From Candidatus Thorarchaeota archaeon (lineage in GTDB: Archaea > Asgardarchaeota > Thorarchaeia > Thorarchaeales > Thorarchaeaceae): a stretch of 14,988 bases of DNA. The translations under genes were made by a program, and so were the position numbers. The stretch covers positions 1 through 14,988 of the forward strand of contig JAEOTX010000132.1 of the NCBI GenBank assembly GCA_016839605.1, written 5' to 3'. The notes beneath the pieces are model-generated. The model saw nothing but the letters and a program-made list of their open reading frames with translations, ran no database searches and was not told the DNA's origin. Positions 2,890 to 14,980 of this stretch are shown one piece after another; within the stretch, counting starts at the first letter, position 1, and each line of letters starts with the position of its first letter.

Positions 2890-2915
2890 TGGGGCCCGAA
2901 GGGGGAATCGAACCC
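2890..2915 (-). pseudogene. 3' fragment of a disrupted tRNA-His (T-loop, acceptor 3' strand, C73, CCA)
   Basis: The minus strand reads GGGTTCGATTCCCCCTTCGGGCCCCA, 22/26 identical to the 3' end of the spliced tRNA-His at 7411-7515. Its acceptor strand TTCGGGC pairs with GCCCGAG of the 5' half at 14916-14922. Confidence 0.85.
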
Positions 2916-2980
2916 AGCGTTCATGGCATCTTTCGATTGATGTCATTGTATTTTGAAGGAGGTTTTTTTAAAATGAAATC

Positions 2981-3394
2981 ATGGAGGAGCTCAGAGAGAG
3001 TTTCCCTCTCGCCGCAAGTAGCATGGATGAACACTTGAAGAAGGTGCAGGAAAGAAGAGGCTTGGTGATGAGCATGGTGTCCAAGACCTTTCGTGATGAG
3101 GTGATGTCTAAACTGGATGATTTGGGAGTATTGGATGCGCTTGTTTATGAGAGATGGATAGAGGGAAGCAATGTCCCGTTTCCAAGAAACACTGAGGCGA
3201 TCAACATATTTCGAAACTCATTTGGTGATGACGAGCCTGTCAACGGGAAGCCCAGGAGTCCAACAAATGAAGCTGTGTCCAAGGAGATAGATGAGCAACT
3301 GGGTCGAATTCGAAAGGCCGCCGCCAATCTCATCATAGGGAAGGATGATCTAGTCAAGGAATTGATGACAAATAGAACTCAGCTATCACTCTAG
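2981..3394 (+). CDS. Hypothetical protein (helical, possibly a fragment)
   Basis: 137-aa ORF with protein-like composition and GGAGG upstream. No motif recognised. Confidence 0.6.
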   Translation: MEELRESFPLAASSMDEHLKKVQERRGLVMSMVSKTFRDEVMSKLDDLGVLDALVYERWIEGSNVPFPRNTEAINIFRNSFGDDEPVNGKPRSPTNEAVSKEIDEQLGRIRKAAANLIIGKDDLVKELMTNRTQLSL

Positions 3395-3655
3395 TCACAC
3401 CAACAGATGTATTGTCGGTGAAGCTGCCTTATTCATAGCGGGTGCAGTTTCGTTTTGGACATGTTCATAAATCGCTTAATCTCCAATACTCCAATATGGT
3501 CACCACCCCCTATTTTTCTTCTACGAGAATCTAGCAGGGCAATTGAATTGTCTTCTACCCATCAATTATTGTAGTCAAAGTCATTTTGTGAAGACTGAAA
3601 TTCTCCACAAACCTCATTATCGAGATATCATACGGTATAGAGAAGGGAAGCTTCC

Positions 3656-4129
3656 GTGAATCATCTATTTGAAGAAACAAGCATCAGGAGTAGTCCAAGA
3701 GTCGGCTCCCTATCCAAAGTGGCTATAATTGTACTGATTGCATTCATATTGTCCTCTGTATTTATCTTCTCACGTCCGACTGACAATGGTTCATTCGATG
3801 GCACCTTTACACATCAGTTCGACATATGGATGGAACCAAGAGACCACGAGTTCGTCATTCAAGTATCCTTCTACGAAACACGTTTTGATGCTGAGGAATC
3901 TGAGAATCGTCTGATTGCCGCGGGAGAGGTGATTACTCCCAACACCGATCATCAGACAATGTATCTGTATGATATACCCCTCTCATTGAACGGAGTGTGG
4001 ATCTCTATCTTCTGCAGATATGATACTGGGATTGTAACGGATACTGTGATTGACCAACTGCCCCTATCTGCTTCGAAGGTCATCATTGTTGATACTTTTG
4101 AGTTGACTCTCAGACTCACACTGTTCTGA
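3656..4129 (+). CDS. Membrane-anchored hypothetical protein (N-terminal TM, beta-rich exported domain)
   Basis: Hydrophobic segment VAIIVLIAFILSSVFIF followed by an acidic beta-strand-like region. Confidence 0.7.
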   Translation: MNHLFEETSIRSSPRVGSLSKVAIIVLIAFILSSVFIFSRPTDNGSFDGTFTHQFDIWMEPRDHEFVIQVSFYETRFDAEESENRLIAAGEVITPNTDHQTMYLYDIPLSLNGVWISIFCRYDTGIVTDTVIDQLPLSASKVIIVDTFELTLRLTLF

Positions 4130-4364
4130 TGAATGAGCAAAGCAGTTCCCAATAATGAAGAGAAGATGAATCGATATACACAGCAATTCCCATTGCCAAT
4201 GCCGATGATAGTAGTAGGAAGCACAATAAAGTGACGCACTTTCGTCGGAAGCTGTGAAACGCCTCGTAACCAGCGGGATGTGCTCAAGAGTTTGCTTTGT
4301 GTGGTTTGCCAATCCGTCCTCTGGAATTGAGTGCTTCTTCACTTAGAAGTTCATTATTAAAGTT

Positions 4365-4817
4365 CTAAGCCCATGGTGAGGCGGTTTCCTCAACTCGTTT
4401 GGGTGCGAAAAACAGAGCAAGAATCCCAGTGACTGTTGTAGGACTGCATAGGTGTGGTGTTTCTGAGATAGGACATGGAAATCCTAGCCACACAACAAGC
4501 AAATGAACCATCTGTAAGGCCAATACAATCTCCACATATCTCATTCTGGTCATATTCTGATCCGTGGTACTGTGCCATGCGAACCAAGCGATGGCTAATC
4601 CGGGTGCGTAGAAAGGAATCATGAGCAGGGTGTAGAGAATGTCAACGACAACTGGTGATGGATAGATGGGATTTCCCGGAGCATATGTCCATAGAGCAGC
4701 GTAGATGCCTGTAACGTGCATTGGTGTGAATCTGGTTACTATAATGACCTTGAATGGTGTTGCGAGGGTCCATGTTGTTAGAAATCCTGCTACTCGTCTA
4801 GGAGACCACCATGGCAT
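4365..4817 (-). CDS. Integral membrane hypothetical protein
   Basis: Strong GAGGTGA Shine-Dalgarno motif upstream of the ATG; 3-4 hydrophobic segments. Confidence 0.7.
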   Translation of the reverse strand: MPWWSPRRVAGFLTTWTLATPFKVIIVTRFTPMHVTGIYAALWTYAPGNPIYPSPVVVDILYTLLMIPFYAPGLAIAWFAWHSTTDQNMTRMRYVEIVLALQMVHLLVVWLGFPCPISETPHLCSPTTVTGILALFFAPKRVEETASPWA

Positions 4818-4886
4818 TATTACATCACCTCATAAGAAGCCTGGACTTGTATGACTTTCCAAATATTTTTGCACTCATCCAGCTTT

Positions 4887-5855
4887 TCAGAGTTCCGTAT
4901 CGCTAGGACTCTGTTCAAACAGACAATAGCCTGAGCTTAAGACTTTGCAGGTTTTCCTAGATTTCCGTTTGTGTTGAGCTTTGTGGGGCTTCTTTGATGT
5001 CCCTCCAGATCGCTGTGTTTTGTACAATGCTATATACAGTACACCGAATGCTCCAAGAGCTGCAAATCCCACGACGTTCGATGGCCCAGTGGATGGTCGA
5101 GCAATTGGGGGACCAAGATCGATGTTCGTGTCCACCAGTGAGATATCCCCTACCGCATAAGAGATGTTACCCAGTCCCAGCAGAACCAAGTCTGCGACAC
5201 CACCATTAGCTCTCAGAAGAACTCTTGCGTCCTTGTCGTACATCCTATGATGTGTCACATTTCCGTCTACGATGTGTAGGAATTTACATGCATATTGTAA
5301 GCCCTCCTGCTGTTCTTCCATCACAATTCCCTGGTACTCGTCATCAACAAGTTCCGCGGTGGCATTGAAATCAGCAATTGCAGATATTATCGACTCTCCA
5401 TCATCCCACTCGCCTAAAAAAAGACGAAGAATACCTGTCTGGCCTACAAGAGTGCCGCTTTCTATCACACATCTTCCCGATTTCATTGAGTAGTAGACGA
5501 GTTGGGAATGGTTCCAATTGTATCCAAGAGAAGTGTTACCATTGTAGCGTATTAGAACCCTAGCATCATCGGAGTCTACCCAGTCAAGAAACTCAAGCCG
5601 AATCAGTATCTCACTTTTCACTGCATGCCCTTCTTCATCCTCGTGAAGGACTTTGCCAGGTACGGACTGAATCAGGCCGTCATTAATAGTATAGTTCCAG
5701 AGCACAATGATAATGCTACTCAGAAGATACTCTAGATACAACCCCTCAATCTGATCCGATATTTGAAAGGGGAAGCAGCTATGGAGTGCAGAGTGAACTT
5801 GGGTCGTACACATATTTGCAAGCAGCAATGTGCTTATGATGATGACGAGCCTCAT
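4887..5855 (-). CDS. Secreted or cell-surface protein with signal peptide, C-terminal TM anchor and basic tail
   Basis: Start placed at MRLVIIISTLLLANM (ATG 5855), which removes the overlap with the upstream gene. The C-terminal VVGFAALGAFGVLYIALY is followed by a K/R-rich tail. Confidence 0.7.
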   Translation of the reverse strand: MRLVIIISTLLLANMCTTQVHSALHSCFPFQISDQIEGLYLEYLLSSIIIVLWNYTINDGLIQSVPGKVLHEDEEGHAVKSEILIRLEFLDWVDSDDARVLIRYNGNTSLGYNWNHSQLVYYSMKSGRCVIESGTLVGQTGILRLFLGEWDDGESIISAIADFNATAELVDDEYQGIVMEEQQEGLQYACKFLHIVDGNVTHHRMYDKDARVLLRANGGVADLVLLGLGNISYAVGDISLVDTNIDLGPPIARPSTGPSNVVGFAALGAFGVLYIALYKTQRSGGTSKKPHKAQHKRKSRKTCKVLSSGYCLFEQSPSDTEL

Positions 5856-5947
5856 TCTGTGGCCACTGCGTTTGACGGAGAAACCAATCCCGAACCCACG
5901 TTTGGCTAAACGATTTCTCGGCATTCCAAGCTGCCTCCAAACACACA

Positions 5948-6421
5948 TCAGAGCTCGTACCCGTCTGTGAAGGTGAAGCTTCCGCCGCCTGTGTGTGTTA
6001 CAGTTGTCTTCAGTTTTGGAAACTGTGTTCGAATTCTGAAGATGAACCACCATTCTATACATTCGAACTGAGCCCATGCGATGCGCTGGTCAGCATTAAC
6101 ATACGTTACTCCACTATCATGATCCCAGACAGTGTAGACCCCCTCAGCACCTCCGTAGTCAGTCGAATATTCGACATCATCAAGATCATCACCATCGCTA
6201 TAGGCAGTAGTTGTGATTTTTATCCAGGCGGGATGATCCCAGCCTGTATATAACTTATCTACGTCCCAGTCGTAAGGGTGCGGGTCTGATTCATACGTGT
6301 AGGCATTCACCGTCGGGATATATACTAGACCAACCAGAAAGGCTGCGAAGGCAAGACTCAACATGAGGGAATTGCGATGCGCCTCCCATCTGCTCATCCT
6401 TGGTTTTTCGTTCTTATTCAT
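5948..6421 (-). CDS. Small secreted protein (signal peptide, acidic/aromatic mature domain)
   Basis: AGGAG upstream. The hydrophobic signal LMLSLAFAAFLVGLVYIPTVNA is followed by a D/Y/W/T-rich domain. Confidence 0.75.
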   Translation of the reverse strand: MNKNEKPRMSRWEAHRNSLMLSLAFAAFLVGLVYIPTVNAYTYESDPHPYDWDVDKLYTGWDHPAWIKITTTAYSDGDDLDDVEYSTDYGGAEGVYTVWDHDSGVTYVNADQRIAWAQFECIEWWFIFRIRTQFPKLKTTVTHTGGGSFTFTDGYEL

Positions 6422-6712
6422 TTACATCTCTCCTTGTAGATTGTTCACGCAGCCATGAGATCTACGAGAGTCAACTTGCTCGCAGATTACGTCGCTGCGC
6501 GCTCCTCGGTCACCATTTGACTCAAGAATCAAAGGAACCTTGGATACTTACATAGCGCCGGTCGTACAATATATTGCCATTAATCAACTTTCCGACACTA
6601 TATTAGTACTCTTCGGTGGGAGGTGATGCTATTTAAACATATCGTATGACGATAAGTTTGACAAAGATTATTAGGGGCAGAAGACCCACAAATTCCAATT
6701 CGGAGTACTACG

Positions 6713-7039
6713 GTGAACATGATGACCGATCACAGACTGAGTTGGTTGGAGCAGCCAGGTGCACCACTCTTGCTCCTGAAACTTCTGGAACGAGATGAGT
6801 TCATCACAAGACTCCTCAGAAGTGCGGTCAATCCCGGTGGAGTGGCAACCCAGGACGGACTCAGAACGCTCAGAAACTTGCTTGGGAGTGAGAGGGGAGT
6901 TGGCCTCATTGATGAAGAGGAACGAAAAGGAGCGGGGCCCAGACCACGCCTGTACGTCTTTCTCACTCCATTGGGTCGGCAAGTAGCTGAACTACTAAAG
7001 CAGATCACTGATACCCTCGCAGAGAATGCTCAGGCTTAG
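6713..7039 (+). CDS. Winged-helix (MarR/HxlR/PadR-like) transcriptional regulator
   Basis: 'GLIDEEERKGAGPRPRLYVFLTPLGRQVAELL' is a classic wHTH wing with the LT..G motif. The gene is divergent from the secreted-protein genes. Confidence 0.8.
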   Translation: MNMMTDHRLSWLEQPGAPLLLLKLLERDEFITRLLRSAVNPGGVATQDGLRTLRNLLGSERGVGLIDEEERKGAGPRPRLYVFLTPLGRQVAELLKQITDTLAENAQA

Positions 7040-7269
7040 ATGTTGTACTGCTCCCGCACGGCACGAACAATCTCTGCTTCTTCTTGGAGACCTGCCTTTC
7101 TAAGCTTGACAGTGAACTCGGAGAGGATGGTCATCACCGGGCACTCCGGGCATTCTATTCGGTGCTCTCCGTACTTCTCCATGAGATCGTTCAGAATGTC
7201 CTCAAATGTCCTGATGAGTGCATCCCGGACAGCGGTCCGCGTGTCGTCACCGTTTCCTGCAGATGTCAT
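7036..7269 (-). CDS. Small hypothetical protein with HxxxCxxC motif (77 aa)
   Basis: MTSAGNGDDTRTAVRDALIRTFEDILNDLMEKYGEHRIECPECPVM..., with a TTTAAA TATA-like box about 25-30 nt upstream. The longer track ORF (to 7497) runs antisense through the tRNA and is rejected. Confidence 0.65.
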   Translation of the reverse strand: MTSAGNGDDTRTAVRDALIRTFEDILNDLMEKYGEHRIECPECPVMTILSEFTVKLRKAGLQEEAEIVRAVREQYNI

Positions 7270-7354
7270 CGCATGTGTGTCCTCGCGTCGGGATTTAAAC
7301 ACCCCCAAGAAGTTGCTACCATCAAGATATTGGACCCGGACACAGTTTGACGGG

Positions 7355-7376
7355 TACGGATAAGCTAATAAGACAA
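7355..7376 (+). promoter_or_regulatory. tRNA-His promoter element (copy 1)
   Basis: TACGGATAAGCTAATAAGACAA, identical to 14959-14980 (minus) and at essentially the same distance (35 vs 36 nt) from G-1 of each tRNA-His. Confidence 0.75.
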
Positions 7377-7410
7377 CGGCGAAAATCGGCTTCTTCGCCA
7401 CAAAAATCAT

Positions 7411-7515
7411 GGCCTGGGTGGTGTAACGGTAGCATAAGGGATTGTGGCTCCCTTGACGCGGGATTACACCTCCTTTTGAGGTGTGACGCGAATTCAATTC
7501 CCGCCCCGGGCCCCA
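7411..7515 (+). tRNA. tRNA-His(GUG) with encoded G-1, C73 and CCA, and a 30-nt intron (7463-7492) at position 53/54
   Basis: Acceptor GCCTGGG/CCCGGGC; anticodon arm AGGGA-TTGTGGC-TCCCT with GTG at 7444-7446; T-arm GCGGG-TTCAATT-CCCGC after splicing. Full hBHBh motif: TTGA/TCAA outer helix, CGCG/CGCG central helix, bulges GG^A and AA^T, inner helix TTACACCTC/GAGGTGTGA. Confidence 0.95.
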
Positions 7516-7530
7516 CTTTCTTCTTCAATT

Positions 7531-7700
7531 TCCCCTGACGCGGGTTCCTGACCCTGTTCTCATAGTGAGCGAACTCTAACCCATGAGCACTTCTATGTTT
7601 CACCCTTCTCATGCCAGGTGTCGCCACCAATTGCGACGTCACTCGCAATCCAGCATGAGCTTTGTCTGACATCATTGGGATGGGATCCCTCCCTCAGACT
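7531..7700 (-). ncRNA. Putative TnpB omega-RNA (reRNA); scaffold about 7548 to >7700, guide 7547->7531
   Basis: Lies downstream of and overlaps the tnpB 3' end, the established omega-RNA position. Nested stems on the minus strand: GTCTGA/TCAGAC; CTCATGCTGG/CTGGCATGAG enclosing ATTGCGA/TCGCAAT and GGTG/CACC; and CTCATGG/CTATGAG enclosing GAG-TTCG-CTC. It ends in GAACCCGCGTCAGGGGA, antisense to tRNA-His. The 5' boundary is unknown. Confidence 0.7.
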
Positions 7701-9342
7701 TGGCTTCTGTTTCCTGTTCATATCCAGATGCATCAGTTCTGGGAACAGAGAAGGTTTCCATAGAATTTTCCACGGCGGGGTCATTATCACTCATCCCCGG
7801 TTTGTCGCCAAAACTGAGAAGACTCGTTTGAGTAGTGTGAACAGCCGCGGACTCCCCAGGATGTGATACTTCATCTTTGGAGGGGAGTAAGGACTTCTTT
7901 TTGGAAGGATTTGCCTTCCTCCGAGCATTCGGAGCTGGAGGTCGCGCTGGCGTACTCCAACGTCCTAGTCCGTGGGTCTCATTCTTTAGTGATGGAATGA
8001 GCTTGATTAGGCGGCGAGCTATGTTTAGAGAGCCATTTCGGTCAGCATTAGTTTTGAATCCACATGAACAGGTGAAGAGATTCTGCTTTGGTCGGTTTCC
8101 TTTTCGGCCGCATTTCCAACACATAATGGAAGTCCACTGCTCTGGAATTGCGCGGAAACGTGCTTCTGAACCCTCAACCTTCCATCCTGACTGAGCTAGA
8201 GCATGTTTTAGTGACTGAGAAATTCTACCAAAGGACCAAGAATGAACCAACGCTCGAAACTTAGACCCCCTTGTGTTTCCTCTTCGTGCACTGCTTCTGA
8301 TGCCCTTTACTCTGCCAAGAGCTATGTACAAATCAAATCGCGAAGACAGTTCCTCGATATAATCGAGGATATCCCGAACCAGTACTCGGTCGTACTCCTT
8401 TGCCGCGTTTTCCCTCTTGGACCCCATTGCTTTGAGTCGTTTAGTCACAGAACTGGACTTCAGTCCTTTCTTAGTTCTGATGGCTTGAACTCGTTGAAGC
8501 TCAGCTACGCGGCTATCATATTTGGAAATGACAGCAACCTTTTCTTTCTGAACGAAATATCTTGTTTCAGAAACCTTACTCTCAGTAAGAAGAGTTGTGC
8601 ATGCAGCCTTCTTGACTCCGAGGTCGATACCGAGAACAGCTTTTGGTTTTGGAGGTGTGCTTCCAAAGACAACTTCAACCTTGACAGATAGGGTAGCCCA
8701 CCATTTCCGATTGCCATCGGTGTAGATTTGAAGAGCCCGTGGCTCACCTCTTCTCAACTGTTTTGTATGGAAGGGGGATATCTTTAGAGGAATCCTAAGT
8801 CTTTGGTGCACTTTCAATCCCAAGAGATTAGAATCAAGAGAGTCACGAAGATCTAACCAGAGTCGAGCTGCCTTGGTGGTCCTCCAAACCAGTTTAAAAC
8901 ACTGAGGAAAAGTCCATCGCGGAACCCTTCGCGAGCTGTTGATGGCACGAGGGCGTGAAGCACGCATCCCCTTCTTGCTTCTTAAAGCTAAATAGCTCTC
9001 ATAGAGTGCAACTGCAGTTCGACGACAGTCAGAGATTTCATTTGCTGAAATTCTTGGAAAGCGGGTTTTCATATCATGAGGAACATTCGTTCGTGGGAGG
9101 TTGCCCTTCTTTCCCCATGAGGTAGGGACAGTCAGAGCATCAAGTTTAGTTTGGTCAATCCGCTTTCGTTTCTTTCCTCGAAGGAGAACAGCTTCTTGCT
9201 GCTCAATTATCCCAAGATATGCTTGAATAACACGAGAGTCACGGGAAGCAATCTGCTTCAATCTCCGCTTAGCTCGTTTGGTCATTGACTCCCAGTTTAT
9301 AGGAATCTTGACACTAATCGTAATAGCTTGGGTGCGAGCCAC
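7672..9342 (-). CDS. tnpB: TnpB-family RNA-guided endonuclease with rearranged RuvC-II and a long disordered C-terminal tail
   Basis: RuvC-I 'VLGIDLG' (D240); RuvC-II 'YIALGRVKGIR' with G343 in place of the usual E; alternative E401 in 'IPEQWTS'; zinc finger C408/C411/C425/C427; RuvC-III 'NADRNGSLNIA' (D434). No tnpA nearby. Confidence 0.93.
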   Translation of the reverse strand: MARTQAITISVKIPINWESMTKRAKRRLKQIASRDSRVIQAYLGIIEQQEAVLLRGKKRKRIDQTKLDALTVPTSWGKKGNLPRTNVPHDMKTRFPRISANEISDCRRTAVALYESYLALRSKKGMRASRPRAINSSRRVPRWTFPQCFKLVWRTTKAARLWLDLRDSLDSNLLGLKVHQRLRIPLKISPFHTKQLRRGEPRALQIYTDGNRKWWATLSVKVEVVFGSTPPKPKAVLGIDLGVKKAACTTLLTESKVSETRYFVQKEKVAVISKYDSRVAELQRVQAIRTKKGLKSSSVTKRLKAMGSKRENAAKEYDRVLVRDILDYIEELSSRFDLYIALGRVKGIRSSARRGNTRGSKFRALVHSWSFGRISQSLKHALAQSGWKVEGSEARFRAIPEQWTSIMCWKCGRKGNRPKQNLFTCSCGFKTNADRNGSLNIARRLIKLIPSLKNETHGLGRWSTPARPPAPNARRKANPSKKKSLLPSKDEVSHPGESAAVHTTQTSLLSFGDKPGMSDNDPAVENSMETFSVPRTDASGYEQETEAKSEGGIPSQ

Positions 9343-9356
9343 ATCATTCGCCGCCT

Positions 9357-9464
9357 AGGTATATAAAGTTCTGACCTGTGCAGGTCATTAGAGTTCACTC
9401 CCTGTCTTGTCTGACAGGAAGCTTTTGAACTCGTATTGAATTCTATATGGAGGTATATAAAGTT
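9357..9464 (-). promoter_or_regulatory. Two identical 14-bp TATA-containing elements (9357-9370 and 9451-9464) flanking a structured segment
   Basis: AACTTTATATACCT (minus strand) occurs twice, 94 nt apart. The TATA of one copy is about 18 nt before the tnpB GTG. The other sits a similar distance before the hairpin that begins at 9432. Confidence 0.65.
9368..9432 (-). ncRNA. Structured element upstream of tnpB (small RNA, 5' leader, or transposon left-end relic)
   Basis: GAGTTCA-aaag-CTTCCTGTC-agacaa-GACAGGGAG-TGAACTC hairpin, then a TGACCTG/CAGGTCA inverted repeat. Shares motifs with the downstream omega-RNA. Confidence 0.5.
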
Positions 9465-9589
9465 ATAAAGCGAATATTTCAAACGTTTGTTTAATTTGAG
9501 AATTTATACATTAGGAACTGAAATATTCCCATTTTTTAATAAGACGAATAATTAATATGGTCACAATAGAATAAAGAAAATGTTGCGGC

Positions 9590-12500
9590 ATGACAAGGAA
9601 ACGAGGGAGGCCAAAGCGGCCATTACCCATGCACCCCAATCGGGTTCTAGCTCAATCCATTAAGACTGGGCTATCTACAGGACTGTACATCCAACGCATG
9701 GTGGAAAACCGCGTTACCAATCATATCTATGAGAGCTCTAAGCGAATTTGGAGAACTGCGAAAGCGCGCTACCAACAATCCTTGCGAGATGGAAAACCAG
9801 ATTTCAGTCATATCACTGAAGCTGAGAATAATATCAGGAAGAATTCGCAACAGATACTCTTCGAAAAAGCAGCAGTCTATGGAAATGTAGAGGTACAGCG
9901 AGCAAAAAGTAGAGACGACACTGTAGGCCCTATGAATCAGCTCCACAATATTGGAGGAGCGGCTATGCGGGAATTCGTCATAGCAAATTATCCGCAGCCT
10001 GATCTTCAACAAGTCCTTTCAGAAGATGGTGAAGTACGATTTGTGTATCCAGCTTCTTCCTTCGGGCCAGAAATTGAGCCGATTCATGTAACACTCCCAG
10101 AAATGGACTTCATTGACTCCTGCAGAGAGCATATCCAAGTACTTGATACTCATAGTTTCATATATGATGTCGAGAATAGAAACGCAAGCAGATATTGCAA
10201 TCTATTTCTCTTAAAGGCCAGACCATATCTTGATTACATCTACTCTGAACACATCTATGGGAAGGCTGGTTTCCGTGAAGGCACTCTAAGAACTCTAAAA
10301 GAACTAAAGGAAAGAATAGCTAGGACTCACAGTATACGAATAGGAAAAACGTCCACCGTGACGACTCATAGAAAAACCCATCATCCAAAATTCGATGTTG
10401 GTTTCTTTCAAGAGCAGATTAATGATGCAATATCTGCAAGAGTGTCGAGTATTGCCATTGATGAGATTCAACGTGTATTGGATGGCGGGTCGATAACAGA
10501 AACTGTTCTGGTAACGGATTCCGAGGGGAATATTGAGGGAGAAGAACCCGCACCTTGCTTGACCAAGAATGATGTTGAGTTCCTCTGGAAATCAGCGAGC
10601 GCCCTGGCACGGAAAAGAGGCACTCAGGTGCATCGTCTGATCTGCAGTCAGTTCCCCAGCTTCTGGAGTATCAAACGCGCTATTCTCAATGATGAGCCTA
10701 CGATTCATAATGATGGGTATCTAATGACCGCAGAAATTCCTGTGGATACAGAAAGAGGGAAGGGTCGTGTGGACCTGGTACTACTTCGAAGGGAAGCAAC
10801 AGCTGACGGGCTCAGGATTCTTTGGCGTCCAATATTTCTTCTCGAGATTAAGAGTAAACTTGGATTCTATTGGGAACTTGATGATATACTGAAAGAATCT
10901 GAATCAAGGAGAAGATATGGTCTTGAACAGCGAGTGGTATCTAATTTTCCGATTTCAACAAGACCACTCGACGATAATGAATGGCGCGCAATAATAGAGT
11001 CACAAATAGATGACGAGCTTTTGATTCAGGTTAACACTTACGCTAATGCGGTATGCAACGAATACATGTCGATATCCGGAGATGAAAGCAATAGTCCGAT
11101 TCTTAGAGGAACTCTGTTCATAGATGCTGAAGACGATGTCGACTGCCATAGATCTTTGATACGAGGATTTGCCATTCGCGTCTACGAATCAGCTTCCAGC
11201 ATTAGTGGCGAGATTCAGAATGCATTATATGAGCCAATAGTTGGTGGTGATGTACCGAAACTTGCCATCGTTCTTCACAAGCAGGAATTGGAAAAAGATA
11301 GCACCAAAGTGTTCATTTCACCCCCTCGGATTCATACATATAATCCACTCACTGAATCCAACATTCTAAAACGCCATTTCATTCTCTATCTTTCTGCGAG
11401 TTCTGCAACTTCTGGTGGCAAATCAGCTGCATGGATTTCCCAATACTACAATGGTCTTCAAGAAATTCATGAGATGGCGAAAGAAGCTAATCCATCCAAT
11501 TTGATATGGCTAGATTTGGCGGATGAATTCACTAAGCCTCGACTTGCTGAAACACGCCTGCGACTTCTACCTTATTCCAAATCTGAGGATGATAAGTATA
11601 GAAGCCATCCAGATGGCATCCGCAAATTCTTCGAGTCATTCGAAATTCATGGCTTCTACAAAGAGATTGGGAGGTTCCTAATGAATGATGGCCCACTCCC
11701 ATCTATAGAAAGCATGTTTCATAAAATCAGAGGAAAGAGCATTGTCGTTGTTAGTGGATGGGAATGGATTAAGAAATCGACGCCGGAACCATATCGGTCA
11801 AACCTCAACAAGCTGTTGGGGTATATTCTGGATCAGCTTCCTAGAAGTGAGGGAACTACCATAATCTGGTTTGACACACCTGAGGTTACTGAGAGTTCGT
11901 CACCCATCTATCAAACAAGGACTTTGGTGCCATTCCATGAATCTTCCCCCCTCTATGGAGAGGTGAATGAAATTATATGGAACATGCCATCAGCGCCTAG
12001 AAGAGAGGTCAATCCAGATGAATGGATACTCCCAGTTGTTCCTGCCGCTCCTGTATACGATGACATAAGAGTGATCATAACTCAGACTTTGCAAGGGTAT
12101 GGAGTGGAGCTGACTCACATACCAGCACTCATGGGTTGGTCCGATAAATTTCGGAGTGAGGGGCTTAGATTCTGGCAACGACAATATCCAAAGCCTGTTG
12201 ACATTCAGCTAGTTCCGGAGAAAGGAATTCGAGATAGAATCAAGATTCTTGCTTTCGAGTTAATACCCTGGTTGCCAGACCTTTGGCCAGATTTTTCAGC
12301 CATAGATTCTCTGAAAGATTCAGATTCGGAATTGCTTTGGAGCATAAGATCAAACCATGACAGAAACATAGGTGATATCAAAGTTGCTAAGCGAATTTTG
12401 AAAGATGGAGGTTCCGTAGAGCTTAGTATTCTTCAAAGGATGAAATACAGGCCGAAAGGCATTCGTGGTGGAAAATCGTATCAATCATTGACAGCAAATA

Positions 12501-14710
12501 GAATCAACTCGCAGCGTTTCTATCGTGGACCCAATGAGCTGAAAACGAATCTGAAGCCTTCCTATGAATCAAAATCGGAAACAACTGAGCCAGTTCTTGG
12601 CAAACAAAAAGATGTAGCATTTGGTAGGATAATATCAACTGATGATTCGCAACATCAAAGTGAAGCGATTGTAGTCGAAAATCCGTATCAGCCGGGTAAT
12701 GTCCTCGTAGGAGTATTCACAGAAAGAGTCAGACCAAGTCAATCCGGTTTTGTCTGGTCGGTTCATGATTCAGAACGTCTAGAGGAGTTTCTGCAAACAG
12801 GTTCTTCGACAAGAGAAATTGATCTCTTATTGAGGAAAACTGGAGATAGGTGGGAATCGTGGAGTTGGGACTCAAAGAATAAGGAATGGAATTATCGAGG
12901 AATTGCAGAGCTAATTACAGGAAGAGAAGGCCGAGTTTCAGAACTCAAAGCAATAAGGGAAATGCCTGAAAGTTCTAGCCACAAGAAACCAGTTGTGAAG
13001 ATACCAGAGTGGTTCAACAAGACAGTGGACATGGCTCTGAAAAGGCTCGCATTCCAACATCAGTCATTGAATAGGGTTTCTCTAACTTTGCACAGCGTTT
13101 CTGATCAATGTAAAGTAAGTTTCACTAGTGAGAAGGCAGCTGACATCTTGCATGAGGTAACTGTTCAAGGCACAGCAGACCTCATCGATCTCCTACGATG
13201 GCCCTTGAAGAATGGGGGACCAATGCCTATCAGGAATTCAGCTCGGTTGTATTGGTCCCCATTTGAGGATATAGAATATGGTGAATTTGACGCAATAAGA
13301 CCGTTTGTGGAAACAAAAGCGCCCCACGATGTAAAGAGAACATTGCCGCCGCTAGTCAAAGACCTTCACGAGCTTTCTGAGACCTTGACTGTAACAGCAG
13401 TATTAACCCATGATGAAGAATTATGCCCATTAGTAAACCGTGAGATATCCGATCATAGAAAATGCTGGCGCGTCGAAATGCGTTCAAAATCAACAAAGGT
13501 TCAGGACAAGAAATTCGCAATGCCATTAAATGGCAAGCAAGTCTTTGGACTCTTATCGTCAAAGCAAATCATAATCGATGGAACTCAAAGACCACTTCAA
13601 ATTGAGATGACGTCTAACCCAGATGCGCCTGAATCTATTGTGCTACACGAAAACTATTGGATACGCAGATTGATGAAAGAATATGGCCGATCCTTACCGC
13701 GCTTAGCTTCTGGCACCTATCTAAAGGTCAGAAACCAGAAATGGGTGATTTCCTTTTCTTTCGAAGGAAATTGGATCGTGTGGACTGCTAGGTCTGATGT
13801 AACAGGACTTCTTAGAGGGAAACCAACTTTCGATTACAGACTTAATCCATCCCTAACTTTGAATCAAGCTACAAAACAGTTCATAGAATCTCTAACGGAC
13901 ATTGTACCAAAAGCAAGCATAAAGGGATTCAGTGAACTCAAGACAAGGATTAGGGGAGCACTTGAAAAGAAAGGCTACAGCAAGTCCACTCCTGATTGTA
14001 TCTTAGAATTAAGTACAAGCAAGAATCAGATTACAATTGCACTGACTCGAGCAGATGGCAAAATCGGAGGAGTCATTGCTGAGAACAAATTCGTGTATGA
14101 CAGAAATGTCTCTATTGAGATGGTTTTAGAACGTGTCCAAGAATGGCTGGAATTTGGTCCTCCTATAAATTGCACTATTGCTAATGAAACGGAAATAATT
14201 GAGGAGCTTCAGTCGTATCTTATCGATTTGGGTGATTTTAAGGAGGATGATGAAAGCGAATCTCAGATGGATTTTGAAACTGAACTCAAAACTGTAGTGA
14301 AAGATCTTAGAGAAGAAGCTGAAATCGATTCCAGCAAACTGGAACTGCTGGCACACTCTTTATCCCAGTTAGCGCATTTGCACCTTGAGAAGCAAGATTT
14401 TGAAAATGCCTTTAGATTCATCGACGAAAGCATTAGCATATTGGAAAACCAGATTCAATTGCTAGATCCTTTTGAATGGGGTTCATCTCTTAAACGAAAA
14501 TTCGTTAGGGCTTTGATTACTAAGAGGAAGATTCTAAATCGCGCTGGTCAAGAGCATTATCCAGATGACATCAAGAAAGTCATGCAAGAAAAGTTTGAAT
14601 TCGCCAAAGAACAGATGCTCTCTCTGGGAAGACACCTCTCTGATGAAGACCGAGTACTCATTGACGAGATGAATCATGTATTTTCTGAGAATCCACAAGA
14701 TTCTCTCTGA
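9590..14710 (+). CDS. Giant (1706 aa) protein with a PD-(D/E)xK (RecB/Cas4-like) nuclease domain, possible degenerate P-loop domain and C-terminal TPR-like helices
   Basis: 'AEIPV..GRVDLVLL' (D395), 'LLEIKSK' (E419/K421) and 'QVNTYA' (Q480, QxxxY motif). 'SATSGGKS' (about 605-612) is Walker-A-like. 'LAHSLSQLAHLHLEKQDFENAFRFIDESISILE' near the C-terminus is TPR-like. Confidence 0.75.
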   Translation: MTRKRGRPKRPLPMHPNRVLAQSIKTGLSTGLYIQRMVENRVTNHIYESSKRIWRTAKARYQQSLRDGKPDFSHITEAENNIRKNSQQILFEKAAVYGNVEVQRAKSRDDTVGPMNQLHNIGGAAMREFVIANYPQPDLQQVLSEDGEVRFVYPASSFGPEIEPIHVTLPEMDFIDSCREHIQVLDTHSFIYDVENRNASRYCNLFLLKARPYLDYIYSEHIYGKAGFREGTLRTLKELKERIARTHSIRIGKTSTVTTHRKTHHPKFDVGFFQEQINDAISARVSSIAIDEIQRVLDGGSITETVLVTDSEGNIEGEEPAPCLTKNDVEFLWKSASALARKRGTQVHRLICSQFPSFWSIKRAILNDEPTIHNDGYLMTAEIPVDTERGKGRVDLVLLRREATADGLRILWRPIFLLEIKSKLGFYWELDDILKESESRRRYGLEQRVVSNFPISTRPLDDNEWRAIIESQIDDELLIQVNTYANAVCNEYMSISGDESNSPILRGTLFIDAEDDVDCHRSLIRGFAIRVYESASSISGEIQNALYEPIVGGDVPKLAIVLHKQELEKDSTKVFISPPRIHTYNPLTESNILKRHFILYLSASSATSGGKSAAWISQYYNGLQEIHEMAKEANPSNLIWLDLADEFTKPRLAETRLRLLPYSKSEDDKYRSHPDGIRKFFESFEIHGFYKEIGRFLMNDGPLPSIESMFHKIRGKSIVVVSGWEWIKKSTPEPYRSNLNKLLGYILDQLPRSEGTTIIWFDTPEVTESSSPIYQTRTLVPFHESSPLYGEVNEIIWNMPSAPRREVNPDEWILPVVPAAPVYDDIRVIITQTLQGYGVELTHIPALMGWSDKFRSEGLRFWQRQYPKPVDIQLVPEKGIRDRIKILAFELIPWLPDLWPDFSAIDSLKDSDSELLWSIRSNHDRNIGDIKVAKRILKDGGSVELSILQRMKYRPKGIRGGKSYQSLTANRINSQRFYRGPNELKTNLKPSYESKSETTEPVLGKQKDVAFGRIISTDDSQHQSEAIVVENPYQPGNVLVGVFTERVRPSQSGFVWSVHDSERLEEFLQTGSSTREIDLLLRKTGDRWESWSWDSKNKEWNYRGIAELITGREGRVSELKAIREMPESSSHKKPVVKIPEWFNKTVDMALKRLAFQHQSLNRVSLTLHSVSDQCKVSFTSEKAADILHEVTVQGTADLIDLLRWPLKNGGPMPIRNSARLYWSPFEDIEYGEFDAIRPFVETKAPHDVKRTLPPLVKDLHELSETLTVTAVLTHDEELCPLVNREISDHRKCWRVEMRSKSTKVQDKKFAMPLNGKQVFGLLSSKQIIIDGTQRPLQIEMTSNPDAPESIVLHENYWIRRLMKEYGRSLPRLASGTYLKVRNQKWVISFSFEGNWIVWTARSDVTGLLRGKPTFDYRLNPSLTLNQATKQFIESLTDIVPKASIKGFSELKTRIRGALEKKGYSKSTPDCILELSTSKNQITIALTRADGKIGGVIAENKFVYDRNVSIEMVLERVQEWLEFGPPINCTIANETEIIEELQSYLIDLGDFKEDDESESQMDFETELKTVVKDLREEAEIDSSKLELLAHSLSQLAHLHLEKQDFENAFRFIDESISILENQIQLLDPFEWGSSLKRKFVRALITKRKILNRAGQEHYPDDIKKVMQEKFEFAKEQMLSLGRHLSDEDRVLIDEMNHVFSENPQDSL

Positions 14711-14884
14711 ACTGAACTACCTTGAAAAGGCGTAGATGATTCTAAGCGTAAATGGTTGTACTATTATTGTGGATTACGGATGTCTGACCATAGTAAGGAA
14801 AGCTTGAATGCCAATAGCAAACAACCCTTGTTTTACTAGGACTAGTAATTGATGCATTGCATGGAACAAGACCTTCAGAATCCT

Positions 14885-14923
14885 ATCCACAATCCCCTAT
14901 GCTGCCATTACACCACTCGGGCC
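14885..14923 (-). pseudogene. 5' half of a disrupted tRNA-His(GUG) (G-1 through position 39)
   Basis: The minus strand reads GGCCCGAGTGGTGTAATGGCAGCATAGGGGATTGTGGAT, 32/38 identical to the 5' part of the tRNA-His at 7411. The anticodon GTG is at 14888-14890. tRNA similarity stops right after the anticodon loop. Confidence 0.9.
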
Positions 14924-14958
14924 ATAGCTGTGTGGCCAGCGATGTCATGCTCATGATT

Positions 14959-14980
14959 TTGTCTTATTAGCTTATCCGTA
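14959..14980 (-). promoter_or_regulatory. tRNA-His promoter element (copy 2)
   Basis: Exact 22-nt match to 7355-7376, located upstream of the tRNA 5' half. Confidence 0.75.

Follow-up and report, generated by a model that had tools for sequence, protein, structure and literature searches.

The tRNA-His gene of a Candidatus Thorarchaeota archaeon is interrupted by a 12-kb insertion, and 12 bases (38-50) are lost from the target. The window, meaning the entire stretch of 14,988 nucleotides that was analyzed, is the whole contig C57 from an 80%-complete genome. The inserted island holds an intact tRNA-His, a tnpB gene with a predicted guide against tRNA-His, and a divergent gene for a large fusion protein. 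Judged from the sequence, the island is probably a natural selfish element that would cut an essential gene and supply a resistant copy of it. We consider it moderately probable that the island represents a copy of a mobile element of Thorarchaeota, which uses a guided cut, is inserted at the break, and lets the cell survive by means of the resistant spare gene.

The two halves of the host tRNA-His are located on the minus strand. By comparison with the intact genes of same-genus relatives, the 5' remnant covers G-1 to G37 (14923-14887) and the 3' remnant covers G51 to CCA (2915-2890). The initial annotation, which was made from the sequence alone, had placed the 3' half at these same bases and had noted that the acceptor strands of the two halves pair (GCCCGAG/TTCGGGC); both points are borne out. 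Its 5' half was assigned to the correct strand, but the true limit is 14887 and not 14885. The bases 14886-14885 are not tRNA, since the intact relatives have other sequence at these positions and the contig joint is located at 14887. The two halves together with the 12 missing bases equal the intact gene of L060, L078, and L082. The 22-nt promoter block of the host gene (14959-14980, minus strand) is identical to the 22 nt upstream of the spare copy (7355-7376, plus strand), and the core of the block is kept upstream of every His gene in the element family. A reading of the shared block as an att duplication was rejected. The host flank (2-2884) contains a 410-aa ORF, a radical SAM gene, and a gene for a 112-aa membrane protein, which lie beside the intact tRNA-His in relatives as well. 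The radical SAM gene (1237-2226) has a weak spore-photoproduct-lyase match and is ordinary. The bases just inside the 3' junction (2916-2920) resemble the guide-type allele with a 1-nt insertion, maybe by chance or microhomology.

A search for the empty site in relatives, proposed in the initial annotation, was successful. An intact, intronless tRNA-His was found between the same flanking genes on both sides in L078, L080, L082, and L059, with variable genes of 0.8-3.9 kb on the 3' side of the tRNA. Such an intact empty allele at the same locus in relatives is expected of a cleave-and-rescue element. Contigs in three of four runs, which are from one study and of which two may be the source samples, connect 2915 with 14887 through precisely the 12 missing bases; the short side of the joint is 23-31 nt, so the joint may come from another species. 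The intact allele may coexist with the island in the samples.

Mis-assembly, or a functional trans-spliced split tRNA, would also produce two separated halves. No single contig in the sample assemblies spans the window, and the 3' half is a branch point of the graph with 30-nt overlaps, which would suit a wrong joint. However, the flank and island depths agree in three runs (island depth 83-93% of flank depth), and the same layout is present at the same 5' flank in another genome, G056. The trans-spliced tRNA was rejected because positions 38-50, comprising 12 essential bases, are in neither half; pairing leader and trailer sequences were not seen. Both accounts are extremely improbable.

The second intact tRNA-His inside the island was confirmed. 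The spare (rescue) tRNA-His(GUG) extends from G-1 to CCA at 7411-7515 on the plus strand, with an Rfam match at 7412-7512 (41.6 bits) and a 30-nt insertion. No other intact His gene was found in the 80%-complete genome. ARAGORN missed this tRNA and gave noise at a low threshold. The insertion (7463-7492, plus strand) is located at 53/54 and interrupts the guide target after guide position +3. The predicted fold of 7450-7503 has two 3-nt bulges around a 4-bp helix (z -3.3), and excision restores the cloverleaf. On this model, the insertion is classified as an archaeal bulge-helix-bulge tRNA intron with predicted splicing.

Three differences separate the spare copy from the guide target: the intron follows +3, position +13 is substituted, and the TAM side is changed. 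The intron and the substitutions in the target would make the spare copy resistant. A copy altered in the target and supplied by the element is the other feature expected of cleave and rescue. The earlier proposal of immunity by the intron is right in that an intron lies in the target; however, substitutions are at least as common among the resident copies of the family, and introns are only one route. Non-canonical introns are frequent in Asgard tRNAs (PMC11291895). His genes with an intron but no element within 10 kb were found at L244, L245, and L247.

The tnpB gene (7672-9342, minus strand) encodes a TnpB of the RuvC-II-rearranged (RIIr) type with a Pfam match to Cas12f1-like_TNB. Residues D240, G343 (the canonical E position), E401, and D434 are each invariant in 66/66 homologues, giving the Gly at the canonical Glu, the alternative Glu before the zinc finger, and the RuvC-I and RuvC-III Asp of this type. 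RuvC-II-rearranged TnpB proteins are described, and predicted to be active, in PMC10691335. The predicted omega-RNA scaffold (7548-7900, minus strand, 5' limit approximate) overlaps the 3' end of tnpB and ends in GGTCAG. The predicted 17-nt guide (7531-7547, minus strand) directly follows GGTCAG and is antisense to tRNA-His 56-39. The initial annotation had reported a 17-nt segment matching an intronless tRNA-His at this place. The guide position stands, but the local empty-site allele is matched at only 16/17, with a mismatch at position 50 (guide position +7), and 17/17 is reached only with the His alleles of other genera (L045 and L083). Ongoing drive at the window locus is uncertain because of this mismatch. 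For the other tRNA guides of the source genome, 15-16 of 16-17 positions agree with same-genus alleles.

The break in the host tRNA is at +18/+19 from the TAM side. This is where TnpB would be expected to cut, and it falls within the range of 15-21 bp in which ISDra2 TnpB cuts (PMC8612924). The host halves in the window are opposite in orientation to the guide and are 4.6 and 7.3 kb away. Upstream of tnpB is a divergent promoter region (9343-9589) with a conserved block at about 9368-9435. In this block are a second GGTCAG and, in reverse complement, the omega-RNA motif GTTCACTC. It may serve as a left end or an operator, or may encode a separate tracr-like RNA.

The initial annotation had described TnpB as stand-alone, with no TnpA and no integrase. 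No Y1 or serine TnpA was found by Pfam among the window ORFs, in agreement with that description. The other two statements have to be revised. The conserved divergent partner of tnpB is a 1706-aa aCas1-type fusion (9590-14710, plus strand; domains from the model and motifs), and its N-terminal fold is Cas1-like with conserved acidic and His residues. The name aCas1 reportedly comes from Makarova and colleagues, in the CRISPR J in 2020. Of the 87 genomes of the order, 51 have homologues of the 1706-aa ORF, and most of these genes are arranged head to head with tnpB. The homologues are almost only from Ca. Thorarchaeota, with one Lokiarchaeota label, and the pair of the large gene and tnpB is kept in dozens of loci.

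The model of aa 1-900 of the fusion is confident (pLDDT 88.9, pTM 0.88). Within it, aa 6-234 form a Cas1-like helical catalytic domain by structure match to Cas1 and casposase (Z 11-13). The best Cas1 match has Z 13.2 and rmsd 3.5 over 178 aligned residues (aa 9-223), the seven best rows are all Cas1 or casposase, and casposase 6opm is matched at Z 11; helical models can reach Z about 13 by chance. E101, H166, D173, D176, and R179 are kept in at least 90% of 43 homologues. The Pfam PF01867 (Cas1) profile gave no match to the large protein. HHalign against 14 Asgard Cas1 proteins gave a non-significant E=0.2, with the E, N, and D..E motifs in register and the His out of register, and the N-terminal beta domain of Cas1 is absent. 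Searches of the large protein by Pfam, PDB sequence, ESM Atlas features, and phage sequences gave nothing useful. The 1706-aa ORF is a candidate integrase, and its likeness to Cas1 is structural only. A RecB/Cas4-like PD-(D/E)XK domain follows at aa ~380-490, with the motifs E-D-ExK-QxxxY at 382-484 and weak PDDEXK_1 leads, and a RecA/RAD51-paralogue/KaiC-like fold with a degenerate P-loop is located at aa ~591-850. The C-terminal half is variable, and its model matched generic helical repeats only.

The cargo (2981-7299) consists of seven ORFs without a significant Pfam match, three of which have paralogues on contig C20. No PolB ORF was found in the window. Terminal repeats, inverted repeats, and a target duplication were searched for at the island ends and none was found, the comparison of the ends being no better than that of shuffles; no shared motif was found among 21 island ends. 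In the source samples, the commoner haplotype lacks 2035 bp of the cargo (5239-7273), with a depth of 13-67 at the joint versus 7-10 over the stretch itself. The window represents the minority longer form there, and the two ORFs crossing the joints are intact. Contigs with a second, more divergent haplotype cover parts of the core at 9229-9280 and 14218-14737. The depth over the large gene is ~60% of that of the island, and two alleles may coexist or have been exchanged.

The guide position was further examined across ~65 homologous loci. With the conservation profile anchored on the end motif itself, the RNA downstream of tnpB ends in GTTCACTCA ... GGT(C/T)A(G), after which conservation is at background. 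GTTCACTCA, the consensus across the homologues, is present downstream of the window tnpB with one mismatch. RNAalifold on the 3' part of the omega-RNA gave no consensus pairs, hence no covariation support for the published 'hypervariable region' as a scaffold. Of 56 distinct family guides, 19 match a tRNA library at 13/15 or better, compared with 1.2% of 250 random segments. The library is partial, about two thirds of the guides are without a tRNA match, and these counts are descriptive and carry no P value because related genomes are not independent. The guides without a tRNA match gave no convincing second match in their own locus.

The guide targets are His, Thr, Pro, Gln, Asp, Arg, Ser, Leu, and Tyr, and they look scattered over the TnpB tree (FastTree). 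No TAM consensus could be inferred across the loci. Most matches between guide and tRNA stop at 13-20 nt, the length of a guide. Five matches run for 26-43 nt to the tRNA end and are true flanks (L121, L123, L124, L098, and C80-Pro).

Guides to tRNA, split host tRNAs, and altered resident copies co-occur for many isotypes, as the initial annotation had suggested looking for. The recurrent layout is a host piece, the large gene, tnpB, the guide, a resident full tRNA, and the other host piece. The source genome alone has four tRNA-guided elements, namely His (window), Thr and Pro (C80), and Gln (C7). The resident copy has an intron inside the target in C80 Pro, L098, L107, and the window, and is recoded by substitutions in C7, C80 Thr, L108, L122, L139, L140, and L241. 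In L093/L094/L100, L113, and L131, the resident copy is the same as the guide at all but 0-1 positions and differs on the TAM side only or hardly at all.

The island of G056 is an independent His insertion with an intronless recoded spare, a large gene 26% identical to that of the window, and no tnpB left. Across seven genomes, there are eight His 5' remnants whose ends fall within counts 32-39 and whose adjoining DNA is unrelated. The junctions vary: one side lies at +6 to +10 or in the TAM, the other at +19 to +54; in L139, as an exception, the deletion does not cover the predicted cut. In the loci read by eye, the guide and the host have the same orientation in five and the opposite in five. 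The remnants may have been eroded after insertion.

Elements L150 (1-532) and L151 (18366-18999) adjoin the 3' end of 16S rRNA, and L145, L097, and L104 are related cases. The guides of L150 and L151 resemble 16S 3' sequences. The element family appears to target rRNA genes too, since elements adjoining 16S carry 16S-like guides. Two or three tandem units of the omega-RNA 3' end with a guide are present in L140, L093, L094, L006, L143, L145, and L151. L140 has three Leu-TAG guide variants in tandem, a minimal array-like arrangement beside a Cas1-like gene.

In the proposed mechanism, the element core is composed of tnpB, the omega-RNA, and the divergent aCas1 fusion gene. The guide would direct TnpB to an essential and conserved RNA gene, which is tRNA-His in the window, and TnpB would cut this gene about 15-21 nt from the TAM. 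The nuclease and Cas1-like domains of the fusion may then process the break and join the incoming DNA, presumably in either orientation, with the loss of some target bases and without visible defined ends. [quoted passage not shown] After insertion, the island may also be spread or maintained when empty alleles are cut and then repaired from an occupied copy. The +7 guide mismatch, the lack of a conserved TAM, and the lack of ends for an integrase to recognise count against this model. So do the purely structural likeness to Cas1, the share of about two thirds of guides without a tRNA match in the partial library, the nearly unaltered resident copies of L093/L094/L100, L113, and L131, the deletion in L139, and the possible erosion of the remnants.

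The initial annotation had proposed that the island is copied in by homologous repair alone, and in such a model the large protein would merely help resection or strand exchange. RecB-like and RecA-like domains suit repair, the island depth relative to the flanks is compatible with spread in a population, and restoration by repair driven by TnpB is discussed in PMC10691335. Homing, however, predicts identical junctions, and the window, G056, G062, G035, and G020 differ in junction, adjoining DNA, and core. Since the independent His insertions also differ in cargo, copying alone is insufficient; it cannot found new sites of other isotypes, and it leaves the conserved Cas1-like site unexplained. 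Guided cutting with end-joining insertion is favoured over pure homing because of the either orientation, the variable deletions, and the absence of conserved ends. Homing as the sole process is unlikely.

Alternatively, the core could have been inserted in the manner of IS200/IS605/IS607, with the guide as a former flank, TnpB removing empty alleles later as an addiction, and the islands arising from rearrangement or erosion at a tRNA hotspot. This is rather unlikely, even though the right end adjoins a tRNA half that reaches the gene end in the five loci with flank-type guides and serial remnants are present in G042. The window host halves are inverted relative to the guide and kilobases away from it, the orientations in the family are 5:5, and the His breaks are grouped around the predicted cut and not the TAM junction. 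A quite improbable account takes the window element as a relic, whose guide is tuned to the allele of another lineage and cuts nothing here, and whose spare is an ordinary intron-bearing Asgard tRNA that was carried along. The +7 mismatch, the perfect match to His genes of other genera, the commonness of non-canonical introns, the intron-bearing His genes without a nearby element, and the possible coexistence of the intact allele in the samples all fit a relic. Against it, neither core gene is disrupted and both have full catalytic motifs, the break is at the predicted cut of the window guide, and the other tRNA guides of the genome match same-genus alleles closely.

The guided insertion model was compared with known systems. 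The window core belongs to the aCas1-TnpB loci of Altae-Tran et al. 2023 (PMC10691335), because it has the Cas1-like, PD-(D/E)XK, and RecA-like folds and the GTTCACTCA motif. In that paper, Cas1H-Asgard-1 and -2 are a gene pair known from computation, aCas1 is proposed as the transposase, the possible guide is put upstream of GTTCACTCA, and the word tRNA is absent from the main text. The window is like Cas1H-Asgard in the Asgard host, the divergent Cas1-like gene beside TnpB, the downstream GTTCACTCA, and the rearranged RuvC-II. In contrast, the guide here follows GGTCA(G) and matches tRNA/16S genes, and the loci show split hosts, spare copies, and empty sites. Flanking repeats, a published feature of Cas1H-Asgard, have no counterpart in terminal repeats at the ends of the window island.

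The OMEGA systems of IS200/IS605 and IS607 (ISDra2; Karvelis 2021, PMC8612924) share TnpB, an overlapping omega-RNA, and a 3' guide with the window. The window has no Y1 or serine TnpA, its guide is not the present flank, and it has cargo and a spare tRNA; instead of precise insertion at the TAM, there is a 12-bp deletion splitting an essential gene, with flank-type guides in some relatives. In tRNA-dependent lysogeny (Guerrero-Bustamante and Hatfull 2024, PMC10865867), an essential tRNA gene is destroyed on integration and replaced by a gene of the same isotype that the element carries. That system uses a tyrosine integrase and a defined att core, and has no RNA guide, cutting of the empty allele, or immunity recoding. 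In tRNA-homing CASTs (V-K, and I-F with delocalised crRNA), a stand-alone guide matching a tRNA directs a mobile element (PMC8730458). There, nuclease-dead effectors and a Tn7 transposase insert beside the gene without breaking it. At the Caldiarchaeum tRNA-Thr(GGU) locus, insertion of a mobile element is associated with a tRNA fragment and with the gain of an intron by the copy that survives (Sugahara 2012, PMC3293823). The element there is 1.8 kb and encodes a recombinase, and an RNA-guided nuclease is not described. Casposons use a Cas1-family enzyme as the mobility protein, and some target tRNA genes. The window differs from them in having no PolB, no terminal inverted repeats, and a deletion in place of a target-site duplication, and in having a guide RNA. 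Homing endonucleases and synthetic ClvR drives cut the empty or essential allele and survive via an immune copy. The window element is, in contrast, RNA-guided, natural, and retargetable across isotypes, with a separate rescue gene and not a self-splicing intron of the host.

The initial annotation knew of no description of such a system. The gene pair is already catalogued, but targeting of tRNA by TnpB in Asgard archaea was not found in the literature searched; Makarova 2020 or the supplement of Altae-Tran may mention a tRNA association. Guided disruption of essential RNA genes with an immune replacement was likewise not found in the literature searched. As far as sequence comparison can indicate, what is new relative to the catalogued gene pair is the apparent match of guides to tRNA/16S genes, the hosts split near the guide site, the resident copies that are mostly recoded or broken by introns, and the insertions in either orientation with variable deletions and unconserved ends. 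The contributions of the window locus are its clean empty sites, the deletion of exactly 12 bp, the intron within the target, and the finding that the same gene received a second, independent insertion. With a concrete guide position, targets, empty sites, and a predicted cut site, the Asgard aCas1-TnpB elements are now assayable.

A broader proposal is offered tentatively, as possible and no further. The family may be a natural RNA-guided transposon, in which TnpB, as an active ancestor of Cas12, and a Cas1-Cas4-RecA-like fusion insert cargo at guided breaks without defined ends or homology. It would be retargeted across tRNA/rRNA genes, sometimes with several guide units, and its cut-and-rescue cycle would select for recoding and non-canonical introns in Asgard tRNA genes. 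If true, RNA-guided DNA insertion would have a route that needs neither Tn7 nor IS110 enzymes, and a single element would unite the Cas1-like protein and TnpB, the two ancestors of type V CRISPR. It would also provide a natural cleave-and-rescue system and a testable reason for the introns at odd positions in Asgard tRNA genes.

Several further arrangements were observed among the relatives. The Gly(TCC) elements L126, L129, L132, L134, L135, L136, and L137 do not have the usual end motif. Their omega-RNA runs directly into an antisense resident tRNA-Gly, and host halves are present at both island ends. In L246 (G042:C162), an intact His gene that has a T-loop intron is preceded by two tandem tRNA-His 5' remnants, which suggests serial insertions. 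In G000, contig C39 carries at about 8620-8760 a 3' remnant of tnpB with the omega-RNA end just before a putative 5S-rRNA-like sequence.
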